The position numbers and the translations under genes are program-made. A stretch of 55,571 bases of DNA from Escherichia phage vB_EcoM_JL1: the sequence record OR791690.1; one strand, given 5' to 3'. The notes below the pieces were generated by a model. The model was given only the letters and a program-made list of their open reading frames with translations. It was not told where the DNA came from and searched no databases. Every line of letters starts with the position of its first letter. The stretch's first letter is position 1. Shown here piece after piece: positions 2,996 through 55,571 of the stretch.

Positions 2996-3424
2996 ATAGG
3001 ACGTTGGGCTTCTGCTCCCCGGCCCCCTAAAAATAAAATTAATATTGCCACAATTCGAGTCTCGTTAATATCGAACAAATTCGAGTCTCCAATATCGTAA
3101 CAATTTTAGTCTCATTAATTCTGTAGCAATATTGAAAATAAAAAAAAAATTATAAAAAAATTATTTCATAGCCAGACAACTGTTCGAACAAATTTCGGCG
3201 AGATAACTTCTCCGAAGGAGATACAGCTGACCGACCATGAACGAATTACTATCCAGGTACAGTTGACCGACCATGTACCATTTGGTTTTGAACTTTACGC
3301 ATTCCTAATATTACTCTTAATATTGTAGCAATATTGGGAATAAATAAATATTTAATTTACTTGTCTTATTCTAGCTCAAAGAGAAACGACGCTAACGCAT
3401 CGAATCTCTTCTCGCATATAATCG
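2996..3424 (-). promoter_or_regulatory. AT-rich non-coding control region between nrdB and RNAP gene, with direct repeats
   Basis: no ORF; three ~25-bp direct repeats (GAGACTCGAATTTGTTCGATATT-like, minus strand), two copies of CATGGTCGGTCARCTGTAYCT, long A/T tract 3131..3170, repeated CAATATTGCTACA. Confidence 0.6.
3149..3179 (-). promoter_or_regulatory. Candidate sigma70-type promoter upstream of RNAP gene
   Basis: minus strand TTGTCT then about 18-19 nt then TATAAT; spacer slightly long. Confidence 0.3.
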
Positions 3425-4525
3425 TTAAAGCTCAAATCCGCCCAGAGCATTGGTGTCCACTTCGGAATCAATCTGCCCGACAAGGTACGAACTAATCTCC
3501 GTTTCTTGTGGAGCAACTTGTACAGCATCCGAATTCAACCATGCGTTAATCCAAGGAATCGGGTTAGTAGCACCTTTGAATGGAGCATCTAATCCAACTG
3601 CTTGCATACGAATATTCGTGATATATTCCACATATCCGCATAGAATTTGCTTGTTTAAGCCAATCATTGAGCCATCTTTGAACAAATAATCAGCCCAATC
3701 TTTCTCTTGTTGGGCCACATTTTCGAACATGAGTTGGCATTCTTGGCGGCATTCTTTAGCAATTTCGGCCATTTCTGGGTCATCAACACCACTTGCAAGA
3801 AGGTTCAGCATGTGTTGAGTTCCAGTCAAATGGAGTGCTTCATCACGAGCAATTAAGCGAATAATCTTGGCATTTCCTTCCATCAACTTGCGTTCAGCGA
3901 AGGCAAATGAACAAGCAAAACTGACATAAAAGCGGATTGCTTCTAGTGCATTAATGGACATGAGGCATAAATATAGCTTCTTCTTAAGCTCACGAATAGA
4001 AACCTCATCTTCATGCAGATGCCACATGGAAGTTAGGTGTTGAAGTTCGTCATAATATTGGGAGATGCCGATTGCACGCATTTTAATATGCTCATTCTCC
4101 ACAATTTCATCGAAAATGACACTCGGGTCTGTAACAATATTACGAATAATATGCGTGTAAGAACGGGAGTGAATTGTCTCTGAGAAGGACCAAGTTTCAA
4201 TCCAAGTTTCCAGCTCAGGAATGCTCACAATTGGCAGCAAAACTGTGGTTGGTCCACGTCCCTGAATGGAGTCAAGCAAGATTTGATAGCGCAAATTGCT
4301 GGTGAAGATGTGCTTCTCACATTCAGGCAGACCAGCATAGTCAATTCGGTCCTGGCTAACATCAACCTCTTCAGGTCGCCAAAAGAAAGATAACTGCTTT
4401 TCGATTAACTTCTCGAAGATGCTATACTTCTGTTGGTCATATCGAGCAACGTTAACGTTCTGACCAAAGAACATTGGCTCTAGTAGTTGGTTATTCTTGG
4501 TTTGTGAAAAGGTAGTGTAAGCCAT
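3425..4525 (-). CDS. nrdB: Ribonucleotide reductase class Ia small subunit (NrdB), host-like
   Basis: near-colinear with E. coli NrdB as I recall it ([11 protein letters not shown]..., [32 protein letters not shown]); no NrdA in the window. Confidence 0.9.
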
Positions 4526-5079
4526 TACAGATTTCCTAGATACTCATAGAATTTATGGCCACCATAACGCCCCAAACCTTTAACATTCTTGAAGTTGCAC
4601 TTCTCCGATGCTGTACAAAAGTGGGTTGCTTTGGTGACAGAGGGTTGATTAAATAGTACAAAAGAGATTGCAACATTAATGGTGTCCAGAACTTGTTGTT
4701 GTTCTGTGGCATAATTAATCTTTGCTACATGCTTCCATTGAGCATTCTTCTTCTTTGCTTCTCGTGTCCATGCAAATTGATTGCGTTGATAGACAACATC
4801 ACAAACGGTGTTAGCGAATGGCTTCCCGAACTCAGTTCTATTACGGACGACATTAGCTACCAGAATCTTTCCATGTTTGTCTTCTCCGCGAGCTTCATAC
4901 CAGATAACTTTAGTATAGCATTCTAGCTCTTTGCGTTGTGAAGAAGATAGTTTCAGACTTCCATTTAAATAAGAATGACTTGCAAAATCTGTAATAGCAG
5001 AATTCACTGCCCCAACCGAAGCTGGGGCGTTGATGTGAACTAAAGCTGCCAGAACTGCAAGGACTTTGAATGATAGCAT
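4525..5079 (-). CDS. SleB/CwlJ-like cell-wall hydrolase with N-terminal signal sequence (candidate endolysin)
   Basis: VIWYEARGE and VVRNR motifs typical of the Hydrolase_2 family; hydrophobic N-terminus [20 protein letters not shown]; next to holin; stop overlaps nrdB start (TAATG). Confidence 0.65.
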
Positions 5080-5096
5080 TCGAGTTCCTTATCATT

Positions 5097-5438
5097 TCAT
5101 CGTGCCTTCTTGAACCACGTCAAAGGATTAAGTTGTTTGATTGCGCCAGAGAAACTTTCCCTGACAGTTGTGATAATGAGGTTTGCACCGATGACACCAA
5201 TCACGATAGCCAATACTAACTGCATAGTGACGTTAGTCGTGAAGGTTTCAAATGTGCCAGCAACATGAAAGGCAAACAGGCCGATTAAGCTGCACAGCGC
5301 CGCATCCAGCAGCGCCTTGCTTAAGCCTTCACTCTCATATGCCCCACGAATTAAAGCCGTAAGACCAGCCAATAATCCGTGCCATACGCCATATTGGTGC
5401 ATCAGGTCCACAAACATCTGAATGGATAGTCGTTCCAT
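5097..5438 (-). CDS. Holin (putative)
   Basis: 113 aa, multiple hydrophobic segments, charged C-terminus WFKKAR, directly upstream of hydrolase. Confidence 0.55.
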   Translation of the reverse strand: MERLSIQMFVDLMHQYGVWHGLLAGLTALIRGAYESEGLSKALLDAALCSLIGLFAFHVAGTFETFTTNVTMQLVLAIVIGVIGANLIITTVRESFSGAIKQLNPLTWFKKAR

Positions 5439-14296: not shown

Positions 14297-14369
14297 TGCA
14301 ATATACCTATTGAAATTAATACATATTCAACTAATGTAAAAGGAAAGCTGGGGATTTCTCCCCAACTCC

Positions 14370-17300
14370 TTACCTTCTTTGTTGCGCACCGTTGTTCATG
14401 TTCATTTGTTGGGTCACAGTCTGACCACCAGGAATTGCCACTGTAGCAGAAGCAGTCTGGTTGTTGACCTTAGCATCAATCTTGACATTAACAACAGTTT
14501 GGGTTTGACCGTATGACATTCCATTACGGGTAAACCCTGTAGCACCTTCATCCAAGCCTTTGGAAGACTTAGCCCACTCACGATATGCTTTAACTCGCTT
14601 CTGAGCCTGAGCTGGAACAGCATTAAGCCAATCCATCCCAAACTTATCGACAGCCTTGTCAACAGTTCTGGGGCCATCCGTGTAAGCAGCCATTGCTTTC
14701 TCGTGGTCGCCACCATAACGCTTGTACATTGCATCGTACAATTCACGACCAACACGAGCATCTTCTTCAGGACTTCCATCAGAAGGTTTGATTCCATAAC
14801 CTGGGTCACGAGCAGTGGAAGGAAGAACCTGCATGATTCCACGAGCACCAGTTGGGCTTGTAACTCGTGTGCCATCCTTGTTGTATTCCCTCCCACCAGA
14901 TTCTTCCTTGGCTATGAAGTCATACACATTTGCAGCAACTTGGCGAGCTTGGCTGTAACCAGAGTTGGCAGCACCAGCAGCAGTGCTTCCAGCTTCGAAC
15001 AGTGCAGCACCGTGAGATAACACACTTTGTGGCACGTTATGCCCTGGCAGGAGCTGTGCGCGCTCCACCTGCAACATTTCTGACTGAGCCATACCTTCGG
15101 CAAAGTCAGAGTTTCTACCCGCTTCTACCACCGAACCTGCTCGCTCATGGCTGTATTCCGTGCGGTCGTAGGCTCGCGCCATCCCATTCAGGCCAGCCAT
15201 TTCGGCAGCACCTGCGATACGGGCCTGACTCCAGCCACGCTCCTTGCCCCTTTCCTGCATGATGCGAGCTAGGGCCACAGGGTCGCCGCCTGTCGCACGA
15301 ATATCGCCTATGGTGAGCAATCCCCTACTGCCGCGAACGATGTTCACAGCGGCGCTGGGGTCGCCGTTAAGCATGGTATTGTAGGCACTATGTGTGGTTT
15401 GATTCAGACGCGCAGCTTGTTGTGAGTTAAGCCCTAACATCTCCAAGCCTTGCGACATGGAGGAGTATTCATTAGGATTCATAACACCAGCATCAAGCGA
15501 GTTGCCGATAAAGTCATTCATGTATTCAGCAGCTTCATTGCCAATCTGAATAGCACCAATGCCTACAGCAGCCATACGTCCAGCAGGAGTTGCCATCAAT
15601 GCTTGCATAACTCCGTTGGTTGCTGAACCAATACTGCCGCCAGCAATTCCAGCAGCTAGTGAACCACCCATGCGACCATAGTCATCATAGTAGTTGCCAC
15701 CACTTGTGAAGTTACCGCCACGACCACCACCACCGCCAGAATATCCACCGCCATTGGCAGCATCAAATCTTTCGCGGTCCCAACCCATTGAATCGGCTTT
15801 GCCGTTAAAGTCTGCGTCTGCACTAATACCCTTCTGCCTGTTTTCTTCCTGAGCAGCAAGGATACCTTTCTTAACAGACAATGCCATAGAGTCATTTCCA
15901 GTATCACCGTTTCCTGTGGTTGCTGGAAAGTTTTGCTCGTGCATTACAAAGTTTGGCTTGTAGTCAGAATAAGATGCTTCTGGATTGTACGAGGAGCGTG
16001 AACCAATAAACGGGTCTTCTGGAGTACCAGCAGCAGCAGAATAGCCACGAGTGGACTTTTGACGAATATCCTTCCAGATTCCATCGCCAGTCATTGCACT
16101 TCTTGCACCAGCAATTAGCTCTTCTCGCTCTAATCCAGCATTGTTTCTAACAAACTCTCGCCCAGCATCAAGACGACCAAGCACAGAATCAAGGCGATTT
16201 CGGTTTCTTTCGTACCATCCCTCGTCCTTCTCAATCCATTGTGAACGTGTTTCGTCGTTGATGGTTTGTGAGAACAAAGCACGAGAACGGCCAGAAACGT
16301 GCATACCAAATTGAATTTGGTCCATGTAGTCTGGATGGTCGCCTTTAAGAAGGTCAGCAAACTTACCAGCCCTTTGCGGATTCTTGTGCTCCCAAATGGC
16401 ATCATCCCCAATAAGACCATCAGGAGAATACATGAAGGCGGGATAGTTGTCATTTGTTATAGCGCCAGTTTGTTTGATATCGAATCCAAATTCCTTACCA
16501 ACACGAGCGCGTGCTTCTTCTTCCGTCCTGTGACCATCAGCGAACATCTTCTTAGTGAAATCGCTGTGCTCTTTACTGCGGGATAGGCCAATCTTATCAA
16601 TCATCCCAGCCCAAGGTCGGGTATATGGGTTGTTTCCTAAGAAGGTTCCAACAGTTGAGCCAGTTATGTCATAATTTTTACGGAAGTCCAGCCACTCTTG
16701 GCTGCCCTGTTCTAAGTCATGGAATCGGACGGGGGACTCGGAACGTCCTGTACCATAGTCTGATACATCACGGAATCCAGCACTATCCATATTTGCAATC
16801 GCAAGTTCCTCACGACGCATTCTTGCAGAGTTCCAATTGGTGGCCTCTCCAAGTTGTGCTGTAAAATCTGTAGATGTTGACAGTGAATCTTTATCGACTC
16901 GCTGTGAAGCTCCCTTCATCTTTGGAATGCGAACAGGTTCGGCATCCATTTTGTCGTAAGTGTTTTCGAGAATAGCTCGAACACTTGATGCAGAATAAGC
17001 TGGCTCATCTGCAAGTTCAGAACGAAGGTTTTCGTATCCGCTTCTGGCTTCTTCCAAATCTGTGTAGCGTGTTGCACTATCCATAATCATGTCACGGTCA
17101 GATACTTCGTGACGAGTATTCAGCATCCCTTTGGAGCCAGAATAAACTTTGGCAGCAGATTTAACAGCTTCACTAATAGAAGAATACAAAGCCTTGCTCG
17201 GCTCGCTCCAACCTGTGCCACCAGTTAGTGATGCAGTGAGGGAGTATTCTGGGTTTATGCCAGAACCATAAGAGCCAAGAGGAAGTCCAGATGCGTTAAG

Positions 17301-18098
17301 TGGTGCACGAGGATGTGCAATGCCAGAAACAATTGAAGGAGAACCAATCTGAGGGAGTGCATCCATGTAAGAAATATGTGGGGCCGATTTATTTCCTACA
17401 TTAGATGCAGAGGTATACCCAACTTCCTTAAAGGCTGCGGGTAACTCTTGTTCCAGACGTTTGGCAACTCGACTAATGTCTCTTGCGTATTGTTCATGAT
17501 TGCTGTATTGCTCACGGTCAACATACATGTGGGCCATGTAGTTATAGGAGTCAGCAATGTTTCCACGGTTGGTGGAGTATTCTGCCATAATATCGCCAGC
17601 ATAATGGCCTGGGATTTCCGGCATAATGTCTTGATGCCCTTGCAAAGTATCTCGCATATAGGCATTAAGCATATTGAAACTACCTTGCGGTAAGTTCGGA
17701 TTTGGCTTTGGCATGTGCATCCACACATCATCTGTGCTAACGCCAAGCCTTTCCATGTATGCGTGAACAGCTTCTACATGGTGTGATGGGCCATTCATTG
17801 CTGCATGAAATGCTTCTGTGTAGCCTGCACTTGAAAGCACTTGTGCAATGTGGGCAGCGTCTGAAATCATGGAAGAGTCACCCAAAGATTCAGTAATTAA
17901 ACTGTCATCTTCGAACGACCCGCCCATTAATTCTGCATTTGTATCCAGCCATCCCGAAGCAGCGCTCGCACTAAGTTGTTGAACCATGTGCGACTTCTTC
18001 ATACCAGCGTGGAAAGTCAGACCGCTTTGAGAGCCTAATGCAATTAACTCATTAACGCTCAACTTCATTAAATCTTTTTGATTAGCCATTGTCTTCAT
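14370..18098 (-). CDS. Tape-measure-like tail protein (1242 aa) with embedded YqaJ-type PD-(D/E)XK nuclease domain and C-terminal lytic transglycosylase (SLT) domain
   Basis: position between chaperone and baseplate genes; QGSQEWLDFRKNYDITGS ... SPDGLIGDDAIWEHKNP (YqaJ-like); Gly-rich and hydrophobic segments; ESGG ... GIMQV near C-terminus (SLT). Confidence 0.7.
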   Translation of the reverse strand: MKTMANQKDLMKLSVNELIALGSQSGLTFHAGMKKSHMVQQLSASAASGWLDTNAELMGGSFEDDSLITESLGDSSMISDAAHIAQVLSSAGYTEAFHAAMNGPSHHVEAVHAYMERLGVSTDDVWMHMPKPNPNLPQGSFNMLNAYMRDTLQGHQDIMPEIPGHYAGDIMAEYSTNRGNIADSYNYMAHMYVDREQYSNHEQYARDISRVAKRLEQELPAAFKEVGYTSASNVGNKSAPHISYMDALPQIGSPSIVSGIAHPRAPLNASGLPLGSYGSGINPEYSLTASLTGGTGWSEPSKALYSSISEAVKSAAKVYSGSKGMLNTRHEVSDRDMIMDSATRYTDLEEARSGYENLRSELADEPAYSASSVRAILENTYDKMDAEPVRIPKMKGASQRVDKDSLSTSTDFTAQLGEATNWNSARMRREELAIANMDSAGFRDVSDYGTGRSESPVRFHDLEQGSQEWLDFRKNYDITGSTVGTFLGNNPYTRPWAGMIDKIGLSRSKEHSDFTKKMFADGHRTEEEARARVGKEFGFDIKQTGAITNDNYPAFMYSPDGLIGDDAIWEHKNPQRAGKFADLLKGDHPDYMDQIQFGMHVSGRSRALFSQTINDETRSQWIEKDEGWYERNRNRLDSVLGRLDAGREFVRNNAGLEREELIAGARSAMTGDGIWKDIRQKSTRGYSAAAGTPEDPFIGSRSSYNPEASYSDYKPNFVMHEQNFPATTGNGDTGNDSMALSVKKGILAAQEENRQKGISADADFNGKADSMGWDRERFDAANGGGYSGGGGGRGGNFTSGGNYYDDYGRMGGSLAAGIAGGSIGSATNGVMQALMATPAGRMAAVGIGAIQIGNEAAEYMNDFIGNSLDAGVMNPNEYSSMSQGLEMLGLNSQQAARLNQTTHSAYNTMLNGDPSAAVNIVRGSRGLLTIGDIRATGGDPVALARIMQERGKERGWSQARIAGAAEMAGLNGMARAYDRTEYSHERAGSVVEAGRNSDFAEGMAQSEMLQVERAQLLPGHNVPQSVLSHGAALFEAGSTAAGAANSGYSQARQVAANVYDFIAKEESGGREYNKDGTRVTSPTGARGIMQVLPSTARDPGYGIKPSDGSPEEDARVGRELYDAMYKRYGGDHEKAMAAYTDGPRTVDKAVDKFGMDWLNAVPAQAQKRVKAYREWAKSSKGLDEGATGFTRNGMSYGQTQTVVNVKIDAKVNNQTASATVAIPGGQTVTQQMNMNNGAQQRR

Positions 18099-23450: not shown

Positions 23451-24038
23451 TTAAGACTTCGGCGTAATAGCAATTTCTTTAGTTGCAGTCACGCTGGAGG
23501 TTGTTTTGTTTGTTGCCTTAATCGTGGCAGAGGTATCAGTGGTCGTCTCATTCAGAACAGTTACAGTACCATTTGCAGCCACAGAAACGCCAGTCACAGG
23601 AGGTGTAACAGTGTAGGCATAATCTGTTGCTGTAGAATTACCAAACTTGAACAGCTTGTCTACAGTTACAGTGGCATCAGCAGAAGACGCATCAGCCGTT
23701 ACAACTCCAGCTACAGCAGACACCGTAGGTGCAGGAGGTTTAGGCTTAATCGTAATCACTTTAGATGCAGTTACACCAGGCTCTGTTTTATTCGTTGCCT
23801 TGATTGTCGCAGAAGTGGCTGTAGTCGTTGCACTTAGTACAGTCACAGTGCCGTTTGCCGCCACAGAAACACCAGCTACAGCAGGAGTAACGGCGAAGTT
23901 GTAATCTGTTGCTGTAGAGTTCTCAAACGTAAACAGTTTGTCTACAGTTACAGTGGCATCAGATGCAGATGCGTCCGCAGTTACAGTACCTGCTACAGCA
24001 GACACCGCAGGAGCTGGAGGTGGCGTTACGGCTTTGGG
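23451..24038 (-). CDS. -1 frame C-terminal extension with two Ig-like (Big_2-type) repeats, reached by programmed frameshift
   Basis: -1 frame open from slippery site 24032..24038 to TAA at 23451; encodes tandem ~90-aa repeats (SAVAGTVTADASASDATVTVDKLF...). Confidence 0.55.
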   Translation of the reverse strand, partial: PKAVTPPPAPAVSAVAGTVTADASASDATVTVDKLFTFENSTATDYNFAVTPAVAGVSVAANGTVTVLSATTTATSATIKATNKTEPGVTASKVITIKPKPPAPTVSAVAGVVTADASSADATVTVDKLFKFGNSTATDYAYTVTPPVTGVSVAANGTVTVLNETTTDTSATIKATNKTTSSVTATKEIAITPKS

Positions 24039-29699: not shown

Positions 29700-30296
29700 T
29701 TATTTGTAACGTTCGGCCCCGTGAGTGTGGGCACCAATTTCAACAGTTCCTGGCACAGACACTTTCACACTGCCATCGCCAACAACAGAGATGCTGTGTG
29801 AGTGTGAACCGTCAGGAATATATGGCCTTTCATGCGGTCCAAGTTCCACACGACCAGTTGAGCCAAAGCCACCTTCGCCACGACCAGTTGCATTCAAGCG
29901 GTCAACTTCAACGAAATGGTGTTGAGTAGCTTTACTAACTTGCACCTGACAAATACGTTCACCTGGCTGAACCACAAAGGCTGTGTCCGAGTCGTTGTGC
30001 AGCTTAACCATAAGATTGCCACGATAATCGGAGTCCAGAATTCCTGTGCAATTTGCCAAGCGAATACCAGACTTAAAGCCATGACCAGAACGGCTATGAA
30101 CTTTGAGTTCGTATCCAACTGGAATCTCGAACTGGAGGCCAGTATCGAAAACAGCAGAGCAGCCGGGATTGATAACAACAGTGCTATCGGAGATAGTGCA
30201 AACGTCAGCAGCAGCAGCGCCAGCAGTAGCGTACACAGGTAATTTCGCATTAGGATGCACTCGCTTTACAGCAACAACTTGAGTCATACAAGACAT
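29700..30296 (-). CDS. dut: dUTP diphosphatase with ~45-aa C-terminal extension
   Basis: motifs SRSGHG, GILDSDYRG, GERICQ, GEGGFGSTG; extension carries SHSHS and GAHTHG. Confidence 0.8.
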   Translation of the reverse strand: MSCMTQVVAVKRVHPNAKLPVYATAGAAAADVCTISDSTVVINPGCSAVFDTGLQFEIPVGYELKVHSRSGHGFKSGIRLANCTGILDSDYRGNLMVKLHNDSDTAFVVQPGERICQVQVSKATQHHFVEVDRLNATGRGEGGFGSTGRVELGPHERPYIPDGSHSHSISVVGDGSVKVSVPGTVEIGAHTHGAERYK

Positions 30297-30298
30297 GA

Positions 30299-30928
30299 TT
30301 ATTTCTCTACTTGATAGGTTACGCGTTCAATCCAGTTGAACACTTTGAATACAGAATCACCCACTTTACCATCAACTAAATGTTCGTCCACTGTTACGCG
30401 GGTAGGTGTGTCTGGGAGGTTGATGTATCTGCGAGAATCGCCCGTGAAATCAAAACCATCACGATGCAAACGCACAATGAGGACAAAATCATAAGCAGAC
30501 TCAATGGCAACGACTTCATCACCAAAACCGCCATCGGGATAAATGACATTAATAATGCCACCCATACGCCCCGCGAGTTCTTTAACACGAGCAGCTTCAA
30601 CCTTACCGAAGTAGTCTTGTCCGTGGCGAGGCTTATACACATCTTCGCTAACGTGAATAAGAGCCTGACGAGGTGTTCTGCCACCAAGACCTGCAAGGGA
30701 GATAGAGTCTTTGAGGTCACGGTCCGAAGCGTAGTGAATAAACTTGTCCACATCAACTTGAAAGTGTTTGGCAGTATGCTCATACAGTGCATCCTTAAAC
30801 TGGTGTTTAATGAATTTGCGTTTGCCGAGGAAGTAAGGTTCCTCCGCAGCAACAATCTTATTTGCAATGGTGTCTTTGCCGCAGCCAGGAGGTCCATTGA
30901 GAATAACAGCTAATCGCTTAATCAAAAC
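30299..30928 (-). CDS. P-loop nucleotide kinase (dNMP kinase-like); start uncertain
   Basis: Walker A GPPGCGKDT; ORF open to 31027 but likely TTG/ATT start near 30928 after GAGGAA RBS. Confidence 0.5.
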   Translation of the reverse strand, partial: VLIKRLAVILNGPPGCGKDTIANKIVAAEEPYFLGKRKFIKHQFKDALYEHTAKHFQVDVDKFIHYASDRDLKDSISLAGLGGRTPRQALIHVSEDVYKPRHGQDYFGKVEAARVKELAGRMGGIINVIYPDGGFGDEVVAIESAYDFVLIVRLHRDGFDFTGDSRRYINLPDTPTRVTVDEHLVDGKVGDSVFKVFNWIERVTYQVEK

Positions 30929-31673
30929 TTTCCTCACTTTTGTCTGCACGTAAACGAACGAGTGACGGGAACCGGAACTTACCAGCTTCTGTCTTCTCAC
31001 GATATCGAACTTGCATAATCGAACCAATTAGCTCGTGGCGATGTTCCCACAACCACTTACGAATCAATGTGTTAGATTCTGGGACACCGTGGTCTGCCAG
31101 ACAATCTTTCACCATTGAGCCAGCACTGCCGTAGTTCGAAGAGATAGAACCACACATACCTTTAAGAGCACCAGTACCTTCTTTCATACCAGTAATCTTC
31201 ACATCGGCATATTTATATGGTACAATCTTCCACCATTTACCTTTTGCATCACGGACAATGATACCTTCATGACCAAGCGCCAAATATTTATCCATCAATG
31301 CCTTAAGGTTTTCATTGCTTGGGTCTTTGCACCAGCCGATGTACAAGCGTGGGTCAACAGCACCATCACTAAGCTCATACACATTGTCCTGGGTTAGAGG
31401 GACGCTTGGCGGGTCAATACGTCCGAGGATGCTAGAAGTCTCATTCCAACTATTACGGAATATCTCAGCATCTCTGAACTGTAAGTGGTCCAAATGAGGT
31501 AGGGGTTTGGAATTACGACTCCAGACACTACCTGATTTATTACGGATAGCTCGAATTCCGTCAATCTTGATGAAGAGTTCACAGCGCCCTTTGATACGGC
31601 AATCTGGGTCTTCCCAATCATGTGCGTGAGCCTTTGTGTAGCGTGTACCATCATCGAGGAGCTTAATAGACAT
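30918..31673 (-). CDS. ATP-dependent DNA ligase, minimal (251 aa)
   Basis: motif I KIDGIR, motif IV EGIIVRD, motif V WWKIVPYK, motif VI FRFPSLVRLRADK. Confidence 0.7.
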   Translation of the reverse strand: MSIKLLDDGTRYTKAHAHDWEDPDCRIKGRCELFIKIDGIRAIRNKSGSVWSRNSKPLPHLDHLQFRDAEIFRNSWNETSSILGRIDPPSVPLTQDNVYELSDGAVDPRLYIGWCKDPSNENLKALMDKYLALGHEGIIVRDAKGKWWKIVPYKYADVKITGMKEGTGALKGMCGSISSNYGSAGSMVKDCLADHGVPESNTLIRKWLWEHRHELIGSIMQVRYREKTEAGKFRFPSLVRLRADKSEESFD

Positions 31674-38204: not shown

Positions 38205-38855
38205 TTATTCCTGTTTAATGAGTGCCTCCCAGCAAACAGGAAACAACTCTGACATAATTTTATTGACTTCTTCTGCAAACAAACGTGCCTCATATTGGGC
38301 GTGCTCTGTAGAGCGTTGCTTGTACATATTAGCCCAGCCCAGTAAAGAGCCAGTCCAAATCCATGTAGTCATCATGGATTGTGGCAACACCATTCGGGCT
38401 TGCTCTGGAGCAATCCCCAAACCAATTAACGTTTCATATTCTGCAATGCAAGCCTTGTTGTGGCTTTCCATGCGATAATGAATATCGTCAGCAAAATCCT
38501 GTGGCAATGGTTGTGCAGTCTGAGTCATCAACTTTTCAGGACGACCAAACACCACATCAGGTACAAAGCATTCAATTTCGATTGCTTCGCCATCTTTGTA
38601 ACGACGGCTAACTTCGTTCCAACGAAAGCCCACCTGGTGCTTACCCAGTTGGCGTGCAACAAAGATTGGTGCAGTGCAGCGTAATGTTACATACGCATGG
38701 GCAAAAGGTGTATTGTGCTTATGCCTTGCGAGAAATTCAATGAGCTTTTCGTCGCGCAATGTCATCTCGTGGGACTCTGCACCATAAGAAGCTCGTGCAG
38801 CATTAACAGTTGTAAGGTCGCTGCCCATGTGGTCAACGAGTGTTGCAGTAATCAT
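38205..38855 (-). CDS. thyX: ThyX-like flavin-dependent thymidylate synthase homologue with altered RHR motif
   Basis: MGSDLTTVNAARASY, APIFVARQL, RSTEHAQYE match ThyX as I recall it; canonical RHR replaced by KHQ. Confidence 0.6.
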   Translation of the reverse strand: MITATLVDHMGSDLTTVNAARASYGAESHEMTLRDEKLIEFLARHKHNTPFAHAYVTLRCTAPIFVARQLGKHQVGFRWNEVSRRYKDGEAIEIECFVPDVVFGRPEKLMTQTAQPLPQDFADDIHYRMESHNKACIAEYETLIGLGIAPEQARMVLPQSMMTTWIWTGSLLGWANMYKQRSTEHAQYEARLFAEEVNKIMSELFPVCWEALIKQE

Positions 38856-52520: not shown

Positions 52521-52992
52521 AATATTTGTTGCTCAAAATCGGGGCGGCAAACGATATTAAATTCGATGCTTTGTCCGACTTCTTCTCTTCTTTCGAATTC
52601 TGATTGAAAGAAAGAAGCATGTCCAAAAGTTCCAATATTACAAAGTTATCTCCCGGCTTGTGGGTGGGCCTTTATAATAGGAGATGGAGCAATATTGTTG
52701 CAATTGAACATGCTTTAGTTGAAGAACAGTTTCGAATGGTAATCCTACTTCACACATGGTTGTTGGAACTTTGTCCGGCCAAAGACAGGGAGTTCAATGA
52801 TTGCCACATCATTACAACACTGTATGTTTAGTTGACATGCTGAAATGTTTCTAGAATGATTTCAACATGACATGCGGAATACTTCTCCGTATTCTGTTAC
52901 TTCACATCCAACTAATGTTACAGGTGGCTACAATATTGAAGCCAGCTCTAAGATTAATTGAAACAAGAAAAGGGAGCCGAAGCTCCCAAATA

Positions 52993-53193
52993 TCAGAACG
53001 GTATCTCTGTATCGAAATAACCAGAATTGTGCAAATATGCATGCAGTAATACATGCGACTCTTGTTTATATTCTGCTAACAACTCTAAGAAGTCTTTAGT
53101 CTCCTCCACTGTAGGACGAGATAAGTTGCTCATGTCACAGGTGTGATGAGGGTTGAAACAGTTTTCGATTTGATTGATTTGCATGGTATTCAT
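52993..53193 (-). CDS. Copy of 417..617 (small protein ending DTEIPF)
   Basis: sequence identity with 417..617. Confidence 0.5.
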   Translation of the reverse strand: MNTMQINQIENCFNPHHTCDMSNLSRPTVEETKDFLELLAEYKQESHVLLHAYLHNSGYFDTEIPF

Positions 53194-53241
53194 TATAAGT
53201 CTCCAAGTTTGTGGTCATCCTTGACCAATTAGTGTTACTGA

Positions 53242-55356
53242 TTATTGACAGAAGTAGTAAGCGTGTTCGCTCATCAGAAGCTCTTCAGTTACGATGTTCT
53301 CATGATACATCTTGATGCCACCAAGTTGCTTAGACAGATTCTCGAATTGATTGTTGGTTACAAAGATTTCAACATATGCTGCACGAATAACTTCCATCAT
53401 ACGTGGAGCATCTGCCAAACAGCAACGGAAACAATCATGGATTGAAGTGAAGCCACGAAGACCAGCTTCTTTAGCTTTAACTGCAACAGTACGAGCAACA
53501 AGTGCATCAATGCCCTGAATGTAGTTAACAACGAAAGTACGCTTGAATTCTTCTTTAGTTGGATTGGATTCACGAATGGTCCAAGGCTTATTCTCCTGAA
53601 TCTGACCAAAGATAACACGAGTTTGGGAGTCAACACGAATGCTGAATGCCTCACAGATTTCACGAGATGGGAAGCAAGGCTTCATTACAACCTGACCATC
53701 AGTGTGACGATATGTGATGTACTCTTTACCAAGTTCAACACAACGGTTGTATGCAGCATCAGCAGCTTTCTCAATGAACATGTTAATCTTAGCACCCAAT
53801 GCGTTATGGATTGCTTCCACACACAGTTCAGCAAATGCCTCAGCTTTCTCCATAGGAATCTGGAGTGCTTCTGTCATGTAGCTGATGAAGTCAGAAGAAC
53901 CAGTCAATGCAGCTTTACCACCACCGTATTGGATAGCCATGTACGGAGTTTTGATAAACTTACGACCAGCTTTCGGATTCAAGAATTCATCCATGATTTC
54001 AGGAGATGGTTTCATTGAAGACTTGTCCAGCAGCTTCAACAGTTCACGAAGACTCAACTGGTATGGGTCAGATGCTTTAGTCTCAGAATCAACCAGACCT
54101 GTTGCACGAGCCATTTCCATATTACCAGCAATGAATGCCAGATATTGAGTACCAGAACATTTAGCATCTAAGCCAAAGCCTACACGAGAATCACATTCAC
54201 CTGTAGTCTCGAACTTGAACCAATCCAGAGCCAGACGAACATAAGTGAATGGCTTGGAAGGACGTTCAGCTTTAGGCATGTTCATCATGCGAGCAAGTGA
54301 ACCAGCTGGATTCTGAGCAACATAAGTTAAACGCTTAGCACTGCACCATTCACCACCAGAAATATCTTCCAGCTCTGCCATAAACATGTTGTATGCAATG
54401 GTAGTAGAACCATCTTCGTTAAACTTCTTAACGATGTTCTCAACATTGTGAGAATACAAGCAACGAGCAAAGTCAGATGATTGTGGGTTAGGACCAGCAC
54501 ATGCTACATGATACAGACGACCACGGTTATCAGCAAAGTAGTCAGAATACAGTGTGTCCTGATTCATCATTGCTACAGCATTGTTCCAAACATGGAGTTC
54601 AGTCTGGATTGCTTCTGGCATCTGCAAGCCACCATAGGTACGTTGTTCAAGCATGGACTGAATGATGCGAACCATCTCAGTCTCCACATGGTACTCAGTA
54701 TCTTGCAGGAATTCGATTGCAGCTTTCAGAGTTTTGGATGGCTTAACTTTGCCACCTTTAACGAAAGGCTTGCGACGAGATTCAGATGTAACACGCTCAG
54801 TGAATGGCACTGCGGTATCTTTGGTTGTAACCAGCTCAACCCATGTGTCAGTTTGTTGGAACGACTTATCTTCGTTCATGGTGATGAAGCCAAAGTGCTT
54901 AGCCAGGCCAATGAGGTTGATAGCTGGGTCAACATAGTGCATTGCTTTCAAATCATTGTTGTAACGGTTGGCATCAGCAATTGAAGCAGAAGCCAGCTCA
55001 ACCATTGCAATTGCAGGAACAACATCATCACGAGTGAATGAGGTCATCATCTTAAAGATTGCAAGAGCAGCAATAGCACAGGTCTGAGGTTGCATGTAGT
55101 TCTGTTTCTCTTTGGCACGATATACCAGAGCAGTGATAGCAGGGACAACGGATTTGATAGTTTGAGTTGAGATAGTTGCCATTTTGCGAGTCTCCAATTT
55201 AGTTTCGGTTTTAGTTTCGGATTGTGTAGCGGAGGTGATTTCATCTACCATCTGGTTGCAACGGTCCATCGTATCGAGCACGTCTTTCCAACCGTGGCCT
55301 TCTTCTTTTAAGCGAGCACCATCAGCAGCCAGTGTACGATATTCTTCATTAGTCAT
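53242..55356 (-). CDS. Copy of T7-like single-subunit RNA polymerase gene
   Basis: identical to 666..2780. Confidence 0.85.
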   Translation of the reverse strand: MTNEEYRTLAADGARLKEEGHGWKDVLDTMDRCNQMVDEITSATQSETKTETKLETRKMATISTQTIKSVVPAITALVYRAKEKQNYMQPQTCAIAALAIFKMMTSFTRDDVVPAIAMVELASASIADANRYNNDLKAMHYVDPAINLIGLAKHFGFITMNEDKSFQQTDTWVELVTTKDTAVPFTERVTSESRRKPFVKGGKVKPSKTLKAAIEFLQDTEYHVETEMVRIIQSMLEQRTYGGLQMPEAIQTELHVWNNAVAMMNQDTLYSDYFADNRGRLYHVACAGPNPQSSDFARCLYSHNVENIVKKFNEDGSTTIAYNMFMAELEDISGGEWCSAKRLTYVAQNPAGSLARMMNMPKAERPSKPFTYVRLALDWFKFETTGECDSRVGFGLDAKCSGTQYLAFIAGNMEMARATGLVDSETKASDPYQLSLRELLKLLDKSSMKPSPEIMDEFLNPKAGRKFIKTPYMAIQYGGGKAALTGSSDFISYMTEALQIPMEKAEAFAELCVEAIHNALGAKINMFIEKAADAAYNRCVELGKEYITYRHTDGQVVMKPCFPSREICEAFSIRVDSQTRVIFGQIQENKPWTIRESNPTKEEFKRTFVVNYIQGIDALVARTVAVKAKEAGLRGFTSIHDCFRCCLADAPRMMEVIRAAYVEIFVTNNQFENLSKQLGGIKMYHENIVTEELLMSEHAYYFCQ

Positions 55357-55571
55357 GATAAAGTCTCCAATTGATTATGATTTAACTGAAACGGATTAGA
55401 CTTGCGTAGCCTATTCATAATCACAACCAACTAATGGTGAGGTGAGCACACTACAACAGCGTACTCTGATTGCCTTTGACCTTGACTTATAAGCGAAGCG
55501 CCTAACTTGGTGTTGTTTGAAAGCCGATAGGCTGTAGGAAAAAGTTGGAGTAGGGACCGTATTTAAGTCCG

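Follow-up and report, generated by a model that had tools for sequence, protein, structure and literature searches.

The window analysed here is the whole of sequence record OR791690.1 of Escherichia phage vB_EcoM_JL1, a stretch of 55,571 nucleotides, and the subject of the analysis is the nrdB gene close to its first end (Table 1), which encodes the small, radical-carrying (β) subunit of a class Ia ribonucleotide reductase (RNR) in a phage that has no gene for the large, catalytic (α) subunit NrdA. As bases 1-2995 are repeated exactly at 52577-55571, the window holds a single full genome of 52,576 bp and, in addition, a terminal redundancy of 2,995 bp. The phage belongs to the genus Carltongylesvirus (Chaseviridae, Cleopatravirinae; phiEcoM-GJ1 / ST32 / flopper group), its genome has a GC content of 44%, and all genes of the window lie on the minus strand. 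Megablast of positions 3000-5000 retrieved 46 phage records with 83-96% identity, all of them Escherichia, Shigella or Yersinia phages of the phiEcoM-GJ1/ST32/flopper group. A preliminary description of this DNA, made from the letters only, had recognised a lone, host-like NrdB at this locus and had suggested that it may pair with host NrdA or modulate the host reductase.

The open reading frame (ORF) had been delimited exactly in that description, and its product passes the family models: it matches Pfam PF00268 (E 2.5e-48, 165 bits, cut-off 33.6) and PHROG 86, and it reaches 697 bits with the NCBIfam equivalog NF006576 ‘class Ia RNR subunit beta’ (cut-off 346), of which profile positions 1-376 are covered. 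In a BLASTP comparison with E. coli K-12 NrdB, taken from NC_000913, 299 of 376 positions are identical (79.5%) over the full length with only one 10-residue gap, which bears out the near-colinearity that had been described. The closest solved structures are E. coli R2 entries.

Residue mapping found the catalytic residues of E. coli NrdB complete in the phage protein, and a loss of key residues, as expected for an inactive remnant, was not seen. All six di-iron ligands (D84, E115, H118, E204, E238, H241), the radical tyrosine Y122 with its hydrophobic pocket (F208, F212, I234) and the radical-transfer residues W48, D237, E52, E350 and Y356 are kept, and R236 is identical as well. The catalytic residues are invariant across 13 clade members. 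In a codon-level comparison of ten members (the window, flopper, Mangalitsa, FXie-2024a, GJ1, Pel53, MLP1 and three Yersinia phages), nrdB is full length and stop-free in every genome, and the pairwise ratio of non-synonymous to synonymous divergence (dN/dS) is 0.016-0.093 at dS values of up to 0.8. Over the protein body, dN/dS is 0.03-0.08, and between the window and PYps3T it amounts to 0.03 in codons 1-60, 0.18 around a hairpin that is described below, and 0.01 in the last 86 codons. Phages of E. coli, Shigella and Yersinia account for 45 database records with this gene. Judging from these comparisons, the phage nrdB is kept catalytically intact by strong purifying selection.

The partner gene is missing. 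When the NrdA sequences of E. coli, T2 and Privateervirus were used as tblastn queries against the whole window, none was found (best E 0.36-0.8), and the nine distinct ORFs of more than 400 residues are each assigned to a function other than NrdA (by Pfam RNA polymerase, tail fibre, a 1242-residue tail protein, sheath, protease, portal, terminase, DNA polymerase and primase-helicase), in full agreement with the earlier statement that no large subunit is encoded. That nrdA might lie just outside the window, which had been considered as well, is impossible, since the window is the full genome with both terminal repeats. The annotation of phiEcoM-GJ1 contains no NrdA, the same holds for flopper in the first 50,000 of its 52,092 bases, and among 20 early/middle ORFs no redoxin, flavodoxin or ferredoxin (glutaredoxin, thioredoxin, NrdI, YfaE-like) was found.

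In a census of 80 IMG/VR loci that encode relatives of the phage NrdB, 51 contigs extend at least 3 kb upstream of nrdB, and 48 of these 51 have nrdA immediately before it, the median gap being 88 nt. The remaining three are the two Carltongylesvirus contigs and a 77.7-kb contig (L028, IMGVR_UViG_3300045988_117772), in which nrdA is absent within 6 kb on either side of nrdB. The Serratia jumbo phage PCH45 (NC_091964.1; nrdB at 4001-5107 of locus L011) encodes a host-like NrdB that is 80% identical to that of E. coli, and three NrdA queries found no match by tblastn over all 212,807 bp; with PCH45, a lone nrdB is seen in a second phage lineage that is unrelated to Carltongylesvirus. Edwardsiella phage pEt-SU and L028 have host-like NrdBs (75-78% identical) with an intact hairpin and without adjoining nrdA. 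In the ~270-kb jumbo phages pEt-SU, Survivor and AH04, which encode a host-like NrdB, nrdA is not next to nrdB, and pEt-SU, Survivor, AH04 and SXP01 are not among the 60 best NrdA matches. As a separate observation, 202 E. coli plasmid records match the phage nrdB partially (~78% over ~150 nt) in genes annotated as class Ia nrdB, and these records may represent phage-plasmids with their own reductase genes.

Does the phage protein fit the large subunit of its host? In the active E. coli complex, solved by cryo-electron microscopy at 2.6 Å, the β tail D342-L375 makes most of the contacts with α, and all contacts have been tabulated (PMC11551348). The phage tail is equal in length to the E. coli tail. 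The extreme C-terminus had been described as changed in comparison with the host end DSEVDTDDLSNFQL, and while the quoted letters are correct, the change is not unusual, as all five substitutions are natural in a comparison set of 115 cellular NrdBs from Enterobacterales and Vibrio (N368 in 8, A369 in 6, G371 in 6, G372 in 48 and E374 in 93 of them), with G372 and E374 even being the commonest residues at their positions. The invariant positions of the segment 356-375 (Y356, L357, G359, Q360, I361, D362, F373, L375) are all kept. By this comparison the C-terminus is an ordinary one, and the idea that it reflects an altered partner specificity was rejected because the substitutions fall inside the natural cellular variation. 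Among the β residues in direct contact with α, 29 of 32 are identical (changed are N131T, N343A and D368N), and so are 14 of the 15 that make water-bridged contacts (changed is R57Q). Vibrio NrdB scores 29/32 for the direct contacts as well, and T2 NrdB, which is only 54% identical, scores 24/32, as it departs at eight contacts that include the C-terminal residue. The α-binding surface of the phage protein is as E. coli-like as that of real enterobacterial or Vibrio NrdBs, and, judged by sequence, tail and interface appear compatible with the host large subunit.

The only gap in the global alignment with E. coli NrdB corresponds to GTHTVNGKTV, residues 173-182 in mature numbering; the short deletion that had been noticed is thus real, but it had been placed too early, at residues ~150-165. 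AlphaFold2 models, which have an overall predicted local distance difference test score (pLDDT) of 62-64 and were used solely for the secondary structure of the high-confidence region 160-200, show strands at 174-178 and 181-185 in an E. coli-like homologue (segment pLDDT 86-90) and a helix-turn-helix at this site in the phage protein, likewise in the high-confidence part. According to these models, the deletion takes out a β-hairpin. The hairpin comprises exactly 19 residues in all 115 cellular NrdBs, and its region is variable in length within the phage clade, with alleles of 372 residues (-4; GJ1-type), 369 residues (-7; FXie-2024a) and 366 residues (-10; window, flopper, ST32 and Bp10). 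Residues 135-219 are free of α contacts in the active complex (contact tables of PMC11551348), and the hairpin is modelled at the start of a 34-residue helix, the opposite end of which (E220) faces α. We read the deletion as the loss of a dispensable, lineage-specific loop. In PCH45 NrdB, the hairpin is independently shortened by 8 residues; this prompted the idea that hairpin loss could be a mark of lone NrdBs, which is unsupported, as the same loop spans 4-37 residues in those viral NrdBs of the IMG/VR census that have an adjacent NrdA.

Table 1. Coordinates of nrdB, of its parts and surroundings, and of other nucleotide-metabolism genes in the window
Feature	Position	Strand	Basis or remark
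nrdB coding sequence, 366-residue class Ia RNR β subunit	3425..4525, incl. stop codon	-	ORF, ATG start
C-terminal tail, E. coli D342-L375, with Y356 and E350 and most NrdA contacts	3428..3529	-	contact tables of PMC11551348, conservation, dN/dS 0.01
Deletion junction, codons D173/E174	4004..4009	-	global and clade alignment; E. coli 173-182 hairpin missing
Codon of the radical tyrosine (E. coli Y122)	4157..4159	-	residue mapping, alignment; inside a fully conserved motif with iron ligands E115 and H118
Endolysin gene, directly upstream of nrdB	4525..5079	-	PF07486
Ribosome-binding site AGGAAA (4537-4532) and TAATG overlap of endolysin stop and nrdB start	4523..4537	-	direct sequence reading
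Stem-loop just past the nrdB stop, candidate late-transcript end	3374..3415	-	fold -23.8 kcal/mol, z -3.6; terminator-like match; function inferred
Nearest upstream phage-RNA-polymerase promoter motif, TTACATTAGTTGAATATGTA	14320..14339	-	weight-matrix scan; ahead of baseplate hub gene
Unique AT-rich intergenic region, nrdB to right terminal repeat	2996..3424	.	sequence, repeat boundaries
dUTPase	29700-30296	-	replication module
Deoxynucleoside monophosphate (dNMP) kinase	~30299-31027	-	replication module
ThyX thymidylate synthase	38205-38855	-	replication module

The surroundings of nrdB link it to lysis genes. The nine phage promoters that the phiEcoM-GJ1 record annotates gave a weight matrix for a scan of the window, in which the motif ACATTAGTTGGATGTGAA recurs on the minus strand only. 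As the nearest upstream motif is found at 14339-14320 and the scan detected none between 14320 and 4525, nrdB is predicted to be the last gene of a late unit of ~11 kb that comprises baseplate, tail fibres, holin, endolysin and nrdB. The sister genera lack this last element: at the corresponding loci of Faunusvirus, Sabourvirus 4HA13 (likewise a phage of E. coli) and Suwonvirus PM1, no NrdB was found by tblastn, and the end of the late operon is formed by holin and endolysin genes that are followed by an intergenic region and then by the polymerase gene. As the late operons of the sister genera end at the endolysin without nrdB, the gene is, to judge from these loci, a genus-specific insertion behind the endolysin gene in the Carltongylesvirus lineage only.

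The insertion is not a young one from the present host. In all 5,426 complete E. coli genomes, the phage nrdB finds matches of only 69-70% nucleotide identity and none of at least 80%, the synonymous differences to E. coli nrdB are saturated (proportion 0.89), and the GC content at third codon positions (GC3) is 42% in the phage gene versus 63% in E. coli nrdB and has drifted to the phage composition. These three findings rule out a recent capture from E. coli. At the protein level, the phage NrdB is 81.7% identical to that of E. coli, 77-79% to those of other Enterobacterales and 77% to that of Vibrio, whereas Enterobacterales NrdBs are 87-95% identical to one another. The phylogeny that the preliminary description had proposed as a check for recent host capture speaks in the same sense: in a neighbour-joining tree, the Carltongylesvirus clade is monophyletic (100% bootstrap) and lies outside both the Enterobacterales and the Vibrio clusters, its exact position being unreliable because of the long branch and the distant T2 outgroup, and PCH45 NrdB falls into the Enterobacterales cluster, apart from the Carltongylesvirus clade. 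Judging from these distances, the donor of nrdB was not a modern E. coli.

What, then, can a radical subunit do in a phage without the catalytic one? The radical subunit alone cannot reduce nucleotides. As the phage β subunit is intact and under selection, as these phages have no α subunit, and as the α-binding surface is E. coli-like, the most economical explanation, which we regard as probably correct, is that an active phage β2 pairs with host NrdA to form a hybrid reductase. The phage NrdB would assemble its diferric-tyrosyl-radical cofactor in the infected cell, β2 would dock on host NrdA (α2) through the conserved C-terminal tail, and the hybrid α2(host)-β2(phage) would sustain the conversion of nucleoside diphosphates to deoxynucleoside diphosphates during phage DNA synthesis, where it would act beside the phage dUTPase, ThyX and dNMP kinase. 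The benefit would lie in an extra or longer-lasting radical subunit after the shut-off of host gene expression. That β instead of α is carried may be owed to its smaller gene and to its radical cofactor, which would be the labile part once host expression stops.

Several points weigh against the hybrid. The nrdA and nrdB genes are co-expressed in E. coli, and a limitation by β is therefore not obvious. The very end of a late/lysis unit is an odd site for a DNA-precursor enzyme; where the phage polymerase is of the T7 type, however, late transcription overlaps bulk DNA synthesis. Of the three changed direct contacts, two (N131T and N343A) affect positions that are invariant in the 115 cellular NrdBs, and the interface between phage and host subunits may for this reason be slightly remodelled. 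The enrichment of identity at contact residues relative to the remaining protein is not significant (Fisher p 0.23), and a literature search found no paper on a phage NrdB that acts with host NrdA.

A viral arrangement of this kind exists in poxviruses, as most chordopoxviruses encode only R2, and the vaccinia R2 protein F4, which is required for replication and depends on its C-terminal tail for binding host R1, forms functional hybrids that supply deoxynucleoside triphosphates (dNTPs) for the replication of the virus (PMC2900304). The likeness is that the virus encodes the small radical subunit only; the differences are that the poxvirus system is eukaryotic, that its rationale is a cell-cycle-limited host R2, and that the formation of the hybrid, together with a phenotype, was shown experimentally there, whereas it is a sequence inference here. 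If the hybrid reductase is indeed formed, the poxvirus strategy would have a bacterial counterpart in Carltongylesvirus: a single 1.1-kb gene would let a 52-kb phage raise its dNTP supply by borrowing the 761-residue catalytic subunit of the host. The phage protein would then also be a natural, highly E. coli-like β2 variant, without hairpin and with ten substitutions at positions that are otherwise invariant, for probing RNR subunit interaction.

Other explanations share some of these elements. Phage β2 could bind host NrdA mainly to alter regulation, for example to escape the feedback by deoxyadenosine triphosphate (dATP) that acts through an α4β4 ring, or to change radical-transfer gating, with deregulated dNTP synthesis as a result, but we consider this unlikely. 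It would draw on ten substitutions that are fixed in the clade at cellular positions of at least 97% conservation (K78R, T81I, V93T, A94V, N131T, D139E, I161Q, V200I, Q306G and N343A, with Q306G adjoining the contact residue Y307), and on the hairpin, constant in cells and shortened stepwise by 4, 7 and 10 residues in the phages. It seems similarly improbable that N131T, N343A, Q306G and the hairpin loss together give a hybrid with altered control by which the phage deregulates host NrdA; such altered control would mean, for instance, that tail binding is gated less by substrate and effector, that phage and host β monomers do not mix, or that less of the hybrid is trapped in the dATP-inhibited α4β4 ring. 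The residues next to the regulatory domain are not in favour of such changes: I297, which touches the ATP-cone in the inhibited α4β4 ring (PMC11447812), is unchanged in the phage protein, and so are N300, E220, S295 and M296, which touch it in α2β2. That hairpin loss or other changes abolish the dATP-inhibited ring is unsupported, as all five residues are retained. Moreover, the hairpin belongs to a stretch without α contacts and sits at the far end of its helix from the α-facing end, and the loop lengths of viral NrdBs with their own NrdA indicate that shortening is not tied to the lone state.

The phage β subunit could also serve another partner, for instance the class Ib subunit NrdE of the host or a phage protein that has escaped recognition, or have a non-reductase, ferritin-like di-iron role. 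There is some room for this, since several phage ORFs have no recognisable family, and R2-like proteins of other function exist; the product even matches NF006198 ‘R2-like ligand-binding oxidase’, albeit weakly, with 26.5 bits and thus far under the cut-off of 274. Such a role nevertheless has little probability: the class Ib NrdF model scores only 98 bits as opposed to the 697 bits of the class Ia equivalog, tail and contact residues are specific for an E. coli-type NrdA, and no phage ORF is large or similar enough for an α subunit.

An inhibitory role, which is one sense of the proposed modulation of the host reductase, is made unlikely by the strong purifying selection on the radical site. 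In its specific form, a decoy that sequesters host NrdA in a dominant-negative manner and thereby stops host dNTP synthesis, it is very unlikely. The intact NrdA-binding tail and the lack of a phage NrdA would suit a decoy, and inactive vaccinia R2 with retained R1 binding is indeed dominant-negative (PMC2900304), but the tail alone would suffice for this purpose, and yet the iron ligands, Y122 and the radical path have remained invariant at dS values of up to 0.8, and the protein body as a whole shows the low dN/dS given above. In addition, the phage needs dNTPs itself and encodes dUTPase, ThyX and dNMP kinase. A decaying or neutral passenger gene from a host, as its site at the extreme genome end beside the terminal repeat, its absence in sister genera and the shrinking loop might suggest, can be dismissed as highly improbable and is already contradicted by the selection analysis, given the intact frames and low dN/dS in all ten genomes, a GC3 that has fully drifted to the phage composition, and the retention of nrdB in the 45 database records.

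The hybrid with host NrdA can be set beside known systems. With E. coli NrdB (PDB 1MXR; 6W4X chain C), the phage protein shares the iron ligands, Y122, W48, Y356, E350, the tail anchors and the direct α contacts counted above, and it differs by the missing hairpin and the clade-specific changes; unlike the E. coli gene, phage nrdB has no adjacent nrdA or yfaE but sits behind an endolysin gene, with predicted phage promoters. The NrdAB of T4/T2 and other phage nrdA-nrdB operons likewise are phage-borne class Ia reductase genes that boost dNTP supply, but these phages carry both subunits. The nrdB-only state is shared with Campylobacter phage CPt10 and Serratia phage PCH45, which are unrelated lineages with independent acquisitions.

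The nrdB-only status of this phage group is already known. Dwivedi et al. (2013) stated that ‘two phages only contain nrdB’, with phiEcoM-GJ1 and Campylobacter phage CPt10 named in their Table S1, and described it as unknown whether such incomplete nrd sets function (PMC3653736). The ST32 paper lists the RNR β gene as last ORF (PMC6266442), and an RNR β annotation is found in essentially all relatives, in more than 40 GenBank records. The phiEcoM-GJ1 gp75, ST32 ORF79 and flopper gp26 are the same gene at the same genomic position, with 91-99.5% protein identity, and the window adds one more isolate. The finding is thus real and was correctly read in outline, but it is mechanistically unsurprising and of modest interest. 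Lone nrdB genes may be more widespread than the two cases of the 2013 list.

A few observations concern the wider genome. The gene for the single-subunit RNA polymerase lies whole inside the terminal redundancy (666-2780 and 53242-55356). Since the polymerase gene is also present twice in other Chaseviridae records (PM1, Y2, PYps23T, ZPAH14), and since the polymerase match in 4HA13 falls under a feature that its record gives as a direct terminal repeat predicted by PhageTerm, the 2,995-bp duplication is probably a true long terminal repeat, with two polymerase gene copies per virion DNA. A promoter-like motif, CACCATTAGTTGGTTGTGAT, occurs at 2844-2863 and 55420-55439 on the minus strand, with a score of 20 versus 22-30 for the annotated promoters. 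The start codon of the polymerase gene follows ~65 nt downstream of this motif, so that the gene may be transcribed by its own product; in phiEcoM-GJ1, the only promoter annotated ahead of the polymerase gene is a host one of the sigma-70 type. The AT-rich spacer between nrdB and the terminal repeat contains, at ~3040-3340, repeated CAATATTGCTACA and GAGACTCGAATTTGTT-like motifs, and two ‘repeat_region’ features are annotated at the equivalent place in flopper; these repeats may serve as early promoters, as an origin or in packaging.

Among the relatives, record PP952070.1, ‘Staphylococcus phage Pel53’ (host label Staphylococcus hyicus), contains a Carltongylesvirus-like genome with 87% DNA identity across the nrdB region and the same gene order as the window (holin-endolysin-nrdB-polymerase), and its host label looks doubtful. 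ARAGORN found no tRNA gene in the whole window, while the phiEcoM-GJ1 record annotates, at the equivalent genome part, a tRNA-Arg ‘that may contain an intron’. An ORF of 184 residues (23451-24005, minus strand), situated between the head protease region and the gene of the major capsid protein, consists of two tandem repeats of ~94 residues, encoded by a 282-nt direct repeat (23458-23739 and 23740-24021, with 77% identity). Its product has a high content of T, A and V and resembles a duplicated immunoglobulin-like decoration domain. Finally, in the 1242-residue tail/virion protein (14370-18098, minus strand), a YqaJ-like recombinase/exonuclease domain (PF09588, residues 468-604, E 1.9e-13) is accompanied by an SLT lytic transglycosylase domain at the C-terminus; one would not expect a domain of the nuclease type in a virion protein.

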